A stretch of 64,000 nucleotides of DNA from Escherichia coli (GTDB taxonomy: Bacteria; Pseudomonadota; Gammaproteobacteria; Enterobacterales; Enterobacteriaceae). The stretch is from the NCBI RefSeq assembly GCF_044324785.1, contig NZ_CP172127.1; one strand, 5' to 3'. The notes below the pieces were generated by a model. The model searched no databases and was not told the origin of the DNA. It saw nothing but the letters and a program-made list of their open reading frames with translations. Of the stretch, positions 2,690 to 7,271 are shown piece by piece (positions within the stretch are counted from its first letter, which is position 1; every line of letters starts with the position of its first letter). Made by a program: the position numbers and the translations under genes.

Positions 2690-4840
2690 TTAACGCCGCC
2701 GACGGCGTGGGGATTTCGTTTTTTCTTTCTTTTTAACTATACCTTCAGGGACTTCCGGTTGCTCTATCGGAAATACCGGTAATGCATCCAGTAGCCGCTT
2801 GCCATAATTTTTGGTCAGCAAGCGTTTGTCGTAAATCACCACTTCGCCCCAGCAACCGTGGCTTCGAATCAGTCGCCCAACCTGCTGAATCAGGTTAAAC
2901 GAGGCGCTCGGCAGGCTTTGCACCTCAAACGGATAGCGGTTGAGGCTTTTCAGCCATTCTCCTTCGGTGATCACCACCGGGCTGTCGATGGGCGGAAAAG
3001 CGATTTTGTGGATATGCACCTGGCTGAGCAGATCGCCTTTCAAATCAAGCCCTTCGGCAAATGACTGCAAGCCCACCAGCACGCTACGCTCACCGTTGGC
3101 AACGCGTTTGCGGTGCAGTTCAACTAAACGGTAACGCGGCTGATCGCCCTGCACCAGCAACATCAGGCGTAAATCCGTCACATAGTCGAGAAACCGCTGC
3201 ATCGCCCGTCCGCTGGCAAACAGTACCAACATACCGAGATGTTTTTTGCTCTCCACCTGTTTACGGAAAAAGGCCGCCATTTCGGCAATGTGCTGCTCTT
3301 CGTTGTCGATGGAAGGCTCAACGCGCATCCGGGGAATAACAATTTTGCCCTGTTCGCAGTGGTTAAAGGGCGAATCCAGCGCCACAAAGCGGTCGCCCGC
3401 TTTCTCTTTCAGCCCGCTCATCTCCTGCAAACGCGAAAAACTGTTCAGCGAACGCAAGGTTGCGGAAGTGACAATAATGTGCGGAATACTGCGCCACAGC
3501 AGCCTTTCCAGCTGATCGCTGACACGAATACCCACGCAGTGAAACCAGAGATGCAGCTGCCCTTCGCGCTCTTCCCGCGTCGCCCATTTGGTCACCGGCG
3601 CACCGGAAGATTGCGCCAGAGACGCCAGCCGCCAGAGTTTGCTTTGCGCCTCGAACATCCCCAGCGCGCGGTTCATCTGCAAAATCAACCGATGCAGACG
3701 TACAATGTCATGGCTGCCGGTTTTCTCACTTAAATCGTTAAGAAATAACTCCGCCAGACCACGCAGCATCTCGGTGAGTTTTGCCAGCCGTTGGCAGATC
3801 TCCAGCACTTCATCAGGCAGTTCGCCCATCGCAAAACGGTGCTCTGCCTCCTGCCCGGCAGGCATGTAGAGGTTGAGAATGTTGTTTAACGAGGCGATAA
3901 GCTCATACAACTCTTCACAATGGGCATTCAAACGCTCGGGGATCGCCAGCGGAGGGATGGTCTTCGGGCGAAACTGCTCCATACAGGTAGCGACCAGTTT
4001 CGTGAACAAGTCCAGCTGTAGCCGATACCAGGGCGCGGTGATTTCGGCGCTCATCTCCAGCGCATCCCGTGCCACATCCGGCAGGTGATGACCTTCGTCC
4101 AGCACCAGCAGTAAATTTTTCGGGTCAGGCAATACGGCTTCGCTTTCCATCGCCGCCATCACCAGCGCATGGTTTGCCACTACAACTTCCGCTTCCTGAA
4201 TTTCCCGACGAGCGACAAAAAACGGGCATTCGCGATAGTAATAACAGTTGCGGTTGAGGCAGCTGGCTTTGTCGGTACTCAACCGACGCCAGAGATCATC
4301 ATCAATGGCGATATCCGTATGATCGCGCAGACCATCCCATTTATAAGTGTCGAGATCGCCCTTCAACTTTGCACAACGCTTTTGCTCTTCCTGATTGTTC
4401 GGCGTCAGCTCGTCGTCAAGAAACGCCAGCAGATCCTGTTGCGTGGGTTCAGTACTGGCAAGCGCTGTCAGATTACGCGGGCAAACGTAGCGCCCACGCC
4501 CAAAAGCGGCAGTGAATTTAAGATCGGGAATGATCTTTTTCAGCAATGGTAAATCTTTGCTGTAGATCTGATCCTGCAACGCCACGTTGGCGGTACTCAC
4601 CACCAACGTTTTTTGCTCTTCGCGGGCAATGGCGATGCCGGGAATCAAATAGGAGAGCGTTTTCCCAACGCCGGTGGGTGCTTCAATCGCCAGATGCCGC
4701 CCTTCTTCTCCGGCCAGCGTTTTGGCGACGTCCGCAATCATCTGCCGCTGCGGCGCACGGGGAATAAAGTCGGGGATCTGTTCCTGAAGCGCCTTATACC
4801 AGGCGGCAATTTGCGCTTTAAGCGCGGCGGTTAATGCCAT
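2690..4840 (-). CDS. dinG: ATP-dependent DNA helicase DinG
   Basis: 716-aa ORF with helicase motifs (GVGKT Walker A, DEGH box) and cysteine-containing region; a LexA box lies upstream. Confidence 0.95.
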   Translation of the reverse strand: MALTAALKAQIAAWYKALQEQIPDFIPRAPQRQMIADVAKTLAGEEGRHLAIEAPTGVGKTLSYLIPGIAIAREEQKTLVVSTANVALQDQIYSKDLPLLKKIIPDLKFTAAFGRGRYVCPRNLTALASTEPTQQDLLAFLDDELTPNNQEEQKRCAKLKGDLDTYKWDGLRDHTDIAIDDDLWRRLSTDKASCLNRNCYYYRECPFFVARREIQEAEVVVANHALVMAAMESEAVLPDPKNLLLVLDEGHHLPDVARDALEMSAEITAPWYRLQLDLFTKLVATCMEQFRPKTIPPLAIPERLNAHCEELYELIASLNNILNLYMPAGQEAEHRFAMGELPDEVLEICQRLAKLTEMLRGLAELFLNDLSEKTGSHDIVRLHRLILQMNRALGMFEAQSKLWRLASLAQSSGAPVTKWATREEREGQLHLWFHCVGIRVSDQLERLLWRSIPHIIVTSATLRSLNSFSRLQEMSGLKEKAGDRFVALDSPFNHCEQGKIVIPRMRVEPSIDNEEQHIAEMAAFFRKQVESKKHLGMLVLFASGRAMQRFLDYVTDLRLMLLVQGDQPRYRLVELHRKRVANGERSVLVGLQSFAEGLDLKGDLLSQVHIHKIAFPPIDSPVVITEGEWLKSLNRYPFEVQSLPSASFNLIQQVGRLIRSHGCWGEVVIYDKRLLTKNYGKRLLDALPVFPIEQPEVPEGIVKKKEKTKSPRRRRR

Positions 4841-4854
4841 GAGAAAACCTGAAA

Positions 4855-4874
4855 TACTGTATAAACAGCCAATA
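4855..4874 (-). promoter_or_regulatory. dinG SOS (LexA) box, non-canonical
   Basis: Minus strand reads tattggctgtttatacagta, which is the dinG LexA operator as I recall it, 15 bp upstream of the dinG ATG. Confidence 0.7.
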
Positions 4875-5010
4875 TTGTGGCATTTTTCGGTTTTCAGGGG
4901 TAATGGTTTTTCTGTTTCTGGAAAGCGGCTCGCAATAACGTTTTCTGGAAGTGAGATTTTCCCGCAGCAGAAGAAACATCATTGCGTAGTAAAAGACAAT
5001 GCACGCAGGC

Positions 5011-5292
5011 TTATTGCGCTGGTGGCCATTGCAGGGCGGTATGCAAAACACGCAGTACCGAGAGCGTATCGCCCTCCACTTGGTAGATCAGCACATAATG
5101 CGGTCTGACAACGGCTTCATGAGTGCCAGCGACTCGTCCGGCCCGATACATCTGCGGGCGTTCACAAACCTGTTCCGCAATGGCTTCAAATTGATTATCA
5201 AGGGCAATTGCCGCTTGCGGATTATCTTTACTGATGTATACCATGATTTGCTCCCTGTCAGACAGGGACATTGGCTTCCATTCCAGACGCAT
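5011..5292 (-). CDS. ParE/RelE-family type II toxin (ParE2-like)
   Basis: 93-aa ORF with ParE-like features (C-terminal ...LIYQVEGDTLSVLRVLHTA). Its ATG overlaps the upstream gene's stop as TAATG. Confidence 0.75.
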   Translation of the reverse strand: MRLEWKPMSLSDREQIMVYISKDNPQAAIALDNQFEAIAEQVCERPQMYRAGRVAGTHEAVVRPHYVLIYQVEGDTLSVLRVLHTALQWPPAQ

Positions 5293-5732
5293 TAATCCCC
5301 CTTCAACAAGGCTTTTTTACGGGCAGCAAATAGACTTTTGGCCTCTTCATGAGAGAGCGCTGGGCGTGGATCGTCAATGGCGGCCTGCACCTGCTCTCGA
5401 AACCAGGCATCATACGCGGCAGCTTCATGAGCTCGTTTTAATGCCTCTGCCCTGTCAGGTCGGGTCGTTTTCTTCTGACCATCCGGGTCGTAATTAGAGG
5501 CGTCGACTTCAAACCGGGCAATACCAACATCTTTCAGGTAGTTGACAACCGTTTCCAGCCGTTTGAACAGGCGGATTTGCCGACTGCGTTGTGCTGCAAG
5601 AGGCCGTTCAGTGTGGCCGTATTTCACGGTCAACGACCAGCCTCCCTGGGTGCCAATAACGTGTGCTGCATCCACTACGCCAGACTCAACCAGTTTATGT
5701 AAGGTTGAGTGATCGATCGTTTCTGGTGCCAT
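5292..5732 (-). CDS. Putative antitoxin: roughly 100-aa N-terminal domain of unknown function fused to a PaaA2/ParD-like C-terminal tail
   Basis: 146-aa ORF translationally coupled to the toxin. The C-terminal AYDAWFREQVQAAIDDPRPALSHEEAKSLFAARKK resembles the PaaA2-type ParE-neutralising motif as I remember it; I do not recognise the N-terminal domain. Confidence 0.55.
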   Translation of the reverse strand: MAPETIDHSTLHKLVESGVVDAAHVIGTQGGWSLTVKYGHTERPLAAQRSRQIRLFKRLETVVNYLKDVGIARFEVDASNYDPDGQKKTTRPDRAEALKRAHEAAAYDAWFREQVQAAIDDPRPALSHEEAKSLFAARKKALLKGD

Positions 5733-5760
5733 AATGCGCTAACCTCTTTGTATACAGCAT

Positions 5761-5824
5761 GCAATTTATAATTAAAGATAGCGCAATTAATAATTAAAGA
5801 TAGCGCAATTAATAATAAATTGCA
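5761..5824 (-). promoter_or_regulatory. Putative promoter/operator of the toxin-antitoxin operon: tandem 22-bp direct repeats carrying four AATTGC half-sites
   Basis: aattaaagatagcgcaattaat occurs twice in tandem, with a flanking GCAATT-N7-AATTGC palindrome, 30 to 90 bp upstream of the antitoxin start. Confidence 0.45.
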
Positions 5825-5909
5825 TTTTTTGATCGTAAATTGTCCAGGGTGAAATTGCGGTAGAAAGAGACTTGTTGCGAAGATGCCGGGCATCGCCCGG
5901 CATAAAAAG

Positions 5910-7271
5910 TTACTGCGCAGCGGCAGGTTTACGCGGACGGCGGCGACGTTGTTGTTCGCCTGCCGGTTTGGCATCGCCGAGACGACGAGACGGTTTTTCT
6001 GCAGGTTTTGCGCTTGCAGATTTTGCACCACCTTCAGCGCGGCGTGGTTGCTGTTGACCGCGACCACCGCCTTGTCCACGACCGCCGCCACGTTGCTGGC
6101 GACCATTCTGGATCGGTTCGGCTTTGATTGACGGGTCCGGCTCATAGCCCGGAATCGCAATGCGCGGGATCTCTTTTTTCAGCAGTTTTTCGATATCACG
6201 CAGCAGTTTGTGTTCATCCACACACACCAGCGATAACGCTTCACCGGTGGCTGCGGCACGACCGGTACGCCCGATACGGTGGACATAATCTTCCGGTACG
6301 TTTGGCAGTTCATAGTTGACCACGTGCGGCAGCTCTTCAATATCCAGGCCGCGCGCAGCGATGTCAGTTGCCACCAGTACACGAATATCGCCCGATTTAA
6401 AATCGGCCAGCGCACGGGTACGCGCACCTTGCGATTTATTACCGTGGATCGCCGCACTGCGGATGCCATCTTTATTGAGCTGTTCAGCCAGATGGTTAGC
6501 GCCATGTTTGGTACGGGTAAACACCAGCACCTGCTGCCAGTTCCCTTTCCCAATCATGTGCGACAGCAATTCGCGTTTGCGTTTCTTATCAACAAAGTGA
6601 ACATGCTGGGTCACCTGATCAGACGCGGTATTGCGGCGTGCCACTTCGATTTCCAGCGGGTTGTGCAGCAGTTTTTCCGCCAGGTTTTTAATATCGTCAG
6701 AGAAAGTGGCGGAGAACAACAGGTTCTGGCGCTTCGCTGGCAGCTTAGTCAACACACGACGGATATCGTGGATAAAGCCCATATCGAGCATGCGGTCAGC
6801 TTCATCGAGGACGAGAATTTCAACCTGATCCAGCTTCACTGCATTCTGATGTTCCAGGTCCAGCAAACGTCCCGGCGTTGCCACCAGCACATCAACGCCA
6901 CCGCGCAGCTTCATCATCTGCGGGTTGATGCTGACGCCACCAAACACCACCAGCGAACGAATGTTCAGGTATTTGCTGTAATCACGGACGTTTTCGCCAA
7001 TCTGCGCCGCCAGTTCACGGGTCGGGGTAAGAATGAGCGCACGTACCGGACGACGCCCTTTGGCGTGCGGCTGGCGAGTGATCAGGTGTTGCAACAGCGG
7101 CAGCGTAAAGCCCGCTGTTTTGCCGGTACCGGTCTGGGCACTGGCCATCAGGTCGCGGCCCTCCAGCACCGCAGGGATCGCCTGCTGCTGAATAGGGGTG
7201 GGTTCACGGTAACCCTGCTCGGCAACGGCGCGCAGGATATCAGGGCTTAAACCCAAAGAATCGAAAGACAT
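5910..7271 (-). CDS. rhlE: ATP-dependent RNA helicase RhlE (DEAD-box)
   Basis: 453-aa ORF with DEAD-box motifs ([23 protein letters not shown]) and an Arg/Gly-rich C-terminal tail. Confidence 0.95.

Follow-up and report, generated by a model that had tools for sequence, protein, structure and literature searches.

A conserved 19-bp palindrome with phased half-sites as the putative operator of an Escherichia coli ParE-class toxin-antitoxin module

The DNA upstream of a two-gene toxin-antitoxin operon in Escherichia coli carries a 19-bp palindrome that is conserved upstream of homologous modules in several bacterial classes and on plasmids. We consider it probable that positions 5733-5882 of the window (the whole 64,000-nucleotide stretch of DNA analyzed here) constitute a promoter-operator. 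An antitoxin dimer, probably via its ParC-like domain, would repress the operon from the palindrome, half-sites in phase with it would add binding units, and the conspicuous 22-bp tandem repeat would be a product of slippage. The first-pass annotation had proposed an iterated autoregulatory operator. The autoregulatory part of this proposal is well supported by the palindrome, which overlaps promoter-like hexamers and is conserved across species, while the tandem repeat itself turned out not to be conserved. Sequence comparison thus suggests that the palindrome and one phased half-site, rather than the tandem repeat, make up the conserved core of the operator.

The operon lies in a small chromosomal island with the following features.

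5733-5882: region with the predicted promoter and operator, upstream of the two-gene type II toxin-antitoxin operon.
5292-5732, minus strand: antitoxin gene, 146 aa, with the ParC-like domain at approximately residues 1-88 and a PaaA2/RelB-type neutralizing segment at residues 102-131.
5011-5292, minus strand: ParE/RelE-family toxin gene, 93 aa, matching TIGR02385 above cutoff and PF05016 (ParE_toxin).
5743-5748, minus strand: Shine-Dalgarno-like AAGAGG, 10 nt ahead of the ATG at 5732 (sequence reading).
4940-5882: toxin-antitoxin island of ~940 bp, with edges taken from K-12 alignments.
5883-5903: GC-rich hairpin ATGCCGGGC-N3-GCCCGGCAT, an inverted repeat directly past the rhlE stop.
2690-4840, minus strand: dinG, an island neighbor.
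5910-7271, minus strand: rhlE, an island neighbor.

Between dinG and rhlE, where E. coli K-12 has ybiA and a REP element, the window has the island instead. Its right edge is the hairpin at 5883-5903, where sequence shared with K-12 resumes; this hairpin is probably the rhlE terminator. The module is present at the same site in 324 of 5426 complete E. coli genomes (~6%), and in RefSeq the first gene of the island is labeled either "hypothetical protein" or "antitoxin PaaA2 family protein". The antitoxin and toxin genes share base 5292, the antitoxin stop overlapping the toxin start, and the toxin scores 37.3 bits against TIGR02385 (cutoff 27.9). Gene layout and toxin family are those of a type II module of the ParE class. 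A predicted neutralizing segment, as expected for this class, is found at antitoxin residues 104-130, which match Pfam PaaA2 (PF21217) with an E-value of 4.2e-10; the match to the NCBIfam RelB antitoxin model NF050103 reaches 47.1 bits, just below the cutoff of 50. The open reading frames of the island and the annotation of related loci revealed no third gene, and PADLOC gave no defense-system match for either protein.

The antitoxin protein of the window is identical to the common E. coli version. At the DNA level, the upstream region (window 5560-5960) shares variants (tcaccctgga..., atcaaaaaat) with E. whittamii (L004), and the island is at most ~95-97% identical to any complete E. coli genome. 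Together these observations indicate that the window may come from a divergent Escherichia lineage or a recombinant. In another carrier, E. coli DETEC-S792 (L001, 2671-2904), the toxin gene is annotated as 234 nt long, compared with 282 nt here, and stands apart from the antitoxin gene; some carriers may have a decayed toxin.

The upstream region contains a tandem array, a palindrome, and several copies of the palindrome half-site.

5761-5816: tandem array (TRF: period 22 bp, 2.5 copies, 97% matches, score 105).
5805-5823: palindrome GCAATTAATAATAAATTGC, 19 bp, of the pattern GCAATT-N7-AATTGC; core of the putative operator.
5783-5788: half-site reading AATTGC in gene orientation, on the promoter-distal side at 22 bp from the palindrome's right half, inside the duplicated unit.
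5761-5766: half-site at +44 bp relative to the palindrome's right half; the counterpart of the +22 half-site in relatives, pushed outward by the duplication.
5853-5858: upstream half-site (gene orientation: GCAATT), shared with relatives in E. coli and E. whittamii.
5838-5843: degenerate upstream half-site, AATTGT (ACAATT in gene orientation), an exact GCAATT in E. coli relatives.

The 22-bp unit aattaaagatagcgcaattaat runs from 5770 to 5791, and an exact second copy with zero mismatches follows at 5792-5813, which bears out the earlier description of two head-to-tail units. A repeat search also finds three in-register copies of GCAATT(T/A)ATAAT(T/A)AA, in 22-bp steps, at 5761, 5783, and 5805. 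The palindrome that had been described as flanking the repeats is indeed there, but it overlaps the end of the second unit. The count of four half-sites within 5761-5824 was likewise correct, with one more exact and one degenerate copy just outside; their distance from the antitoxin start, given as 30-90 bp, measures 29-92 bp. Taken together, all half-sites fall 29-126 bp upstream of the antitoxin ATG (5732, minus strand). Exact GCAATT/AATTGC hexamers occur five times within 98 bp (at 5761, 5783, 5805, 5818, and 5853) compared with ~0.09 expected per 98 bp from the 61 found on both strands of the whole window, although the five are not independent since two of them are copies made by the duplication. 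The full GCAATT-N7-AATTGC pattern occurs once in the window, at 5805-5823, as expected of a local autoregulatory site.

To follow these elements in relatives, the DNA upstream of each relative's antitoxin gene was compared at ~80 homologous loci. The set comprised 78 loci from a collection of species-representative genomes, each with a gene for a relative of the 146-aa protein, plus loci from E. coli, plasmids, and metagenomes. Between genera the flanking DNA is otherwise not alignable, yet a 19-bp palindrome with the core GCAA-N11-TTGC recurs 48-80 bp before the start codon. It is present in enterobacterial genera (Escherichia, Erwinia, Pantoea, Serratia, Photorhabdus, and Xenorhabdus), in two subgroups of Pseudomonas, in several Betaproteobacteria, and in one Rhizobiales genome, as well as on a Rhizobium plasmid (L092) and a Klebsiella plasmid (L084). 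At least 9 of the 12 positions of GCAATT-N7-AATTGC are matched in 55 of 63 upstream regions vs 81 of 1419 control windows (5.7%; random 150-nt stretches from the same loci), raw counts that overstate the number of independent observations because many loci belong to closely related Pseudomonas genomes. We therefore also used a non-redundant set of 37 loci with flank identity below 75%. In this set, A7 and T11 of the palindrome, positions that played no part in selecting the sites, are each conserved in 36 of 37 loci. The near-invariance of this symmetric center suggests that the true half-site is ~9 nt long, GCAAT(T/C)(T/A)A(T/C), within a family consensus GCAAT(T/C)(T/A)A(T/C)-W-(R)T(W)(R)ATTGC. 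Such symmetry fits the signature of a site that would be read by a symmetric dimer. The site is thus kept with the module across hosts, as an autoregulatory operator would be.

The palindrome is absent in distant members of the family, namely those in Xanthomonas (33% identity), Fluviibacter, Herbaspirillum, and one Rhizobium plasmid; their upstream regions have other inverted repeats or none that is recognizable. Comparison of half-site variants with residues of the N-terminal domain gave no clear covariation, both being highly conserved and confounded by phylogeny.

Other elements accompany the palindrome in subsets of loci. Nine loci of different classes (L005, L006, L008, L011, L019, L028, L047, L077, and L083) share the motif GTTA(T/C)G(G/T)T, often within GGGCGTTATGTT, at ~40-55 nt upstream of the palindrome and ~99-174 nt before the antitoxin start. 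The motif has only nine matches in the 383-kb background and none in the window, and in Aeromonas it is part of a terminator-like hairpin. Clade-specific second dyads are found 20-45 nt downstream of the palindrome, TCCGC-N3-GCGGA in Betaproteobacteria (L011, L015, and L016) and CCACTGTTCAACAATGG in Pseudomonas.

The spacing of the half-sites is also conserved. Enterobacterales relatives have an (A)nTTGC half-site at a distance of exactly 22 bp past the palindrome's right half, across 16-nt spacers that have diverged. Among the 37 non-redundant loci, TTGC occurs at offset +22 in seven and at every other offset from 6 to 59 in zero to two. The carriers include Escherichia, Erwinia, Pantoea (L006), the Klebsiella plasmid (L084), Serratia, Photorhabdus, and Xenorhabdus. 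In addition, a Curvibacter locus has a variant half-site repeated at 22-bp spacing, Ewingella has two complete palindromes 23 bp apart, and E. coli relatives contain five exact copies of the extended half-site GCAATT(T/A)AT. The occurrence of the +22 half-site in several genera, together with the double palindrome of Ewingella, suggests that iterated sites are a trait of the family.

The second full 22-bp unit has a different history. The window has 2.5 copies of the unit vs 1.5 in its relatives, and comparison of the aligned sequences indicates that 1.5 units, i.e., the palindrome plus one phased half-site, is the ancestral Escherichia state. The extra 22-nt block of the window (gctatctttaattattaattgc in gene orientation) is missing from E. 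coli and from E. whittamii (L004); it is also missing from five loci that encode the identical protein. In the best-scoring 12 of the 324 module-carrying E. coli genomes, the match always spans 21 nt less than the window query; a genome with the extra unit would outscore them. JGI metagenome contigs likewise lacked the sequence of the duplication junction. (A short, AT-rich megablast query over the repeat returned nothing, probably owing to low-complexity masking, and longer queries were used instead.) Since the window has one unit more than any relative compared, the tandem repeat appears to be a recent, strain-specific duplication. Replication slippage between the pre-existing 1.5 copies would be the obvious route to an exact tandem 22-bp repeat. 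The duplication adds one half-site that is in helical phase, and it moves the predicted promoter 22 nt farther from the ribosome-binding site.

Two candidate promoters overlap this region.

5812-5839, minus strand: candidate sigma-70 promoter A, -35 TTTACG (5839-5834), 16-nt spacer, -10 TATTAT (5817-5812); from a consensus scan only.
5797-5825, minus strand: candidate promoter B, -35 ATGCAA (5825-5820), 17-nt spacer, -10 TATCTT (5802-5797); by analogy with relatives.

In model A, the predicted -10 falls within the center of the palindrome. This center fits TAnnnT in most relatives and is a perfect TATAAT in Erwinia and Pantoea. In model B, the predicted -35 is ATGCAA in the window vs TTGCAA in most relatives; TT precedes GCAA in 28-29 of the 37 non-redundant loci, giving TTGCAA, and in the same alignment TAnCAT follows 16 nt after TTGCAA, past the right half-site. 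Conservation in the flanks of the palindrome is asymmetric and promoter-like. The two models compete, and in both of them the palindrome overlaps the predicted core promoter, the dyad covering the -10 in model A and lying between the -35 and -10 in model B. This position over core promoter elements is the one expected of a repressor site.

What, then, would read the palindrome? The first-pass annotation had left the N-terminal domain of the antitoxin unassigned. However, precomputed annotation places the N-terminal ~88 residues in Pfam PF28031, "ParC-like", and residues 6-83 match the NCBIfam ParC model NF041544 below cutoff (E 3.5e-8; 33 bits, cutoff 95 bits). A search with the domain gave 412 clusters at 50% identity (E at most 0.001). 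Most members of the ParC-like family are ~145-160 aa long, a length that corresponds to fusion with an antitoxin tail; others have 80-120 aa. Built from an 89-sequence alignment, the AlphaFold2 model is confident (pLDDT 93, pTM 0.81); it begins with a strand and a helix, continues with three strands and a short one, and ends with a helix and a strand. Conservation is highest in the basic stretch A-A-Q-R-S-R-Q-x-R-L-F-K-(R/K) at residues 46-58, in which R54 is nearly invariant in the wider ParC-like family. No resemblance to a known DNA-binding fold was found for the predicted alpha/beta domain. A PDB sequence search with the domain profile gave no credible match, a Pfam-A search gave no match to the N-terminal domain, alone or across the 89 relatives, and PHROGs gave matches only to families of unknown function. 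A literature search on ParC-like antitoxins, PaaA2 fusions, the dinG-rhlE island, and ParC-like biochemistry found no paper on the family.

We infer from context that the N-terminal ParC-like domain is probably the palindrome binder. The module has two genes, and the PaaA2 segment is described in the literature (PMC8630535) as lacking a DNA-binding domain, which leaves the N-terminal domain as the candidate. Moreover, module and palindrome are found together in different classes and on plasmids, a pattern that speaks against a host factor.

A different arrangement is found on the Aeromonas plasmids L083, L096, L097, and L099, where a stand-alone ParC-like gene of 85-89 aa lies directly upstream of a toxin-antitoxin pair, a three-gene layout reminiscent of paaR2-paaA2-parE2. 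The pairs that follow are TraY/RHH-ParE, RelB-ParE, CopG-ParE, and CcdA-CcdB, each with its own, different palindrome. Whichever pair follows, the ParC-like gene keeps GCAA-N11-TTGC ~70 nt upstream of its own start. Since the motif is kept while the pairs vary, it appears to be tied to the ParC-like protein and not to PaaA2 or ParE, but the four upstream regions are mutually homologous and hence count as one independent case. The antitoxins of these pairs already have their own DNA-binding domain, and so the role of the ParC-like protein there could differ from toxin-antitoxin regulation. In two of these four plasmids (L096 and L099), the annotation places a gene for a replication initiator close downstream.

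ParC-like proteins have other neighbors elsewhere. On Xanthomonas citri plasmid pXAC64 (L082, 1805-2856), the gene for a 149-aa protein whose N-terminal domain is ParC-like overlaps a downstream gene for an M48-family metalloprotease; the two may constitute another kind of two-gene module that uses this N-terminal domain. Altogether, 191 Xanthomonas plasmid records match the domain. In Rms149 (L091, 48086-48706) and a Herbaspirillum plasmid (L094), ParC/ParC-like genes are positioned between a partition gene (parG or parB) and a replication initiator gene (repA or trfA). Around parC of Rms149, whose product is ~22% identical, nothing convincing was found in the way of a GCAAT palindrome.

A broader reading of these data is that PF28031 represents a new class of antitoxin DNA-binding/dimerization domain with an eL38-like alpha/beta fold that reads GCAATYWAY-W-RTWRATTGC, and that the stand-alone plasmid ParC-like proteins are autoregulated transcription factors and not partition components. 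We regard the case for and against this reading as evenly balanced. The fold, as modeled, may then be distinct from ribbon-helix-helix, helix-turn-helix, AbrB, and Phd.

On the basis of the arrangement of sites, the following mechanism can be proposed. An antitoxin dimer would bind the palindrome at 5805-5823 through its ParC-like domains and occlude the promoter. Half-sites 22 bp apart, i.e., ~two helical turns, would present themselves on the same face of the helix, so that further antitoxin dimers, or complexes bridged by the toxin, could bind alongside in a cooperative manner. In ParDE, RelBE, and Phd-Doc systems, repression responds to the toxin:antitoxin ratio. By analogy, the additional binding would either tighten repression or make it sensitive to this ratio, with the toxin acting as a co-repressor. 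The extra unit of the window would provide one more auxiliary site.

It is possible, though unlikely, that only the palindrome is an operator, the 22-bp units and outlying half-sites being unbound AT-rich sequence of the promoter or leader and the tandem repeat the result of neutral slippage. That the second full unit is confined to the window among the loci compared agrees with this possibility, as does the fact that the +22 and +44 sites are half-sites without a recognizable partner half; Pseudomonas and most betaproteobacterial relatives indeed have the palindrome alone. It does not, however, account for TTGC at +22 in seven non-redundant Enterobacterales loci despite diverged 16-nt spacers when other offsets give at most two, nor for the five exact extended half-sites in E. 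coli relatives and the tandem full palindromes of Ewingella. Less probable still is that the antitoxin does not bind the palindrome at all, and that the element is simply the promoter, with TTGCAA as its -35 followed by an AT-rich spacer, or else a host-factor site, with the ParC-like domain serving oligomerization or plasmid maintenance. TTGCAA and TAnnAT hexamers do coincide with or flank the palindrome, the domain has no known DNA-binding fold, and its namesake ParC is annotated only as "partition-associated" and found among par and rep genes. Yet the dyad symmetry reaches positions that have no role in a promoter (A7/T11 and the right-hand TTGC), the site stays with the module in hosts belonging to different classes as well as on plasmids, which speaks against a host factor, and the PaaA2 segment has no DNA-binding domain of its own.

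Two further explanations place the function of the repeats elsewhere, and we consider both very improbable. One is that they act in the RNA, forming a leader hairpin that steers translation or stability of the operon mRNA. The minus strand of 5733-5830 folds at -21.5 kcal/mol (z = -2.1 vs shuffles), which is weak for an AT-rich repeat, and both predicted promoters start transcription inside or downstream of the palindrome. Moreover, there was no Rfam match in 4800-6000 at E-values up to 1, and Pseudomonas has a conserved mismatch in the palindrome (position 5, GCAAAC vs GATTGC) with no compensatory changes. The other explanation, to which we assign the lowest probability, takes the direct repeats for replication iterons or for a partition site resembling a centromere. 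Plasmid iterons typically have a 22-bp period, and ParC-like genes often adjoin par and rep genes on plasmids. Against this, relatives have only 1.5 units, and what is conserved is a palindrome whose distance to the gene start is fixed; plasmid iterons are repeats beside a rep gene on the replicon that depends on them, an arrangement not seen here. We rejected this explanation since the dinG-rhlE locus is chromosomal and the island has no rep or par genes.

Self-repressing toxin-antitoxin operators are textbook knowledge and the repeat itself is ordinary. What stands out is a large, widespread antitoxin family in which a PaaA2-type tail and a domain with neither a solved structure nor a known function are paired with a sharply defined 19-bp palindrome. 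The palindrome provides a ready DNA target for testing the uncharacterized ParC-like domain. Loci with one or two extra phased half-sites form a natural allele series for learning how operator iteration tunes repression. In this context, the label "ParC" on plasmids may hide a regulator.

With respect to known systems, the namesake of the domain is IncP-6 ParC (Rms149 and pRA2), which shares with the antitoxin the weak NF041544 match and the motif R-x-F-(R/K)-x-(L/F) followed by a helix. ParC of Rms149 differs in that it has 128 aa and stands alone, its gene lying between parG and repA; it has neither a PaaA2 tail nor an adjacent toxin, and pairwise identity is ~22%. At 33 bits against a cutoff of 95, the domain is related to NF041544 but the antitoxin is not a member of that family, and in place of a parA-parB/parG-parC operon it has a chromosomal locus with no par genes. 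The papers found gave no description of the biochemical function of IncP-6 ParC.

The paaR2-paaA2-parE2 system of E. coli O157:H7 prophage CP-933P resembles the present module in its ParE-family toxin, PaaA2-type neutralizing segment, and multiple spaced sites. PaaA2 of E. coli O157 has no DNA-binding domain, and operator binding falls to another protein, the regulator PaaR2; the regulation involves several sites across the promoter, whole or half palindromes at equal spacing (PMC8630535). However, that system has three genes and a short PaaA2, whereas here there are two genes, no third gene for a PaaR2, and a PaaA2-like segment fused to an extra ~88-aa ParC-like domain, so that the module is not of the O157 type. 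The operators are also unrelated in sequence, GTTTAGTAA-type repeats there and GCAATT here. RK2 parDE, Vibrio cholerae parDE2, and RelB-RelE share with the module the bicistronic overlapping genes, a palindromic operator over the promoter (here a predicted one), and auxiliary repeats. Their antitoxins use a ribbon-helix-helix N-terminal domain for DNA binding, in contrast to the different, predicted alpha/beta fold without a solved relative found here. According to PMC10776004, and in part as general knowledge, the antitoxin of classical modules represses and the toxin modulates this repression, and the same would be expected for the module described here.
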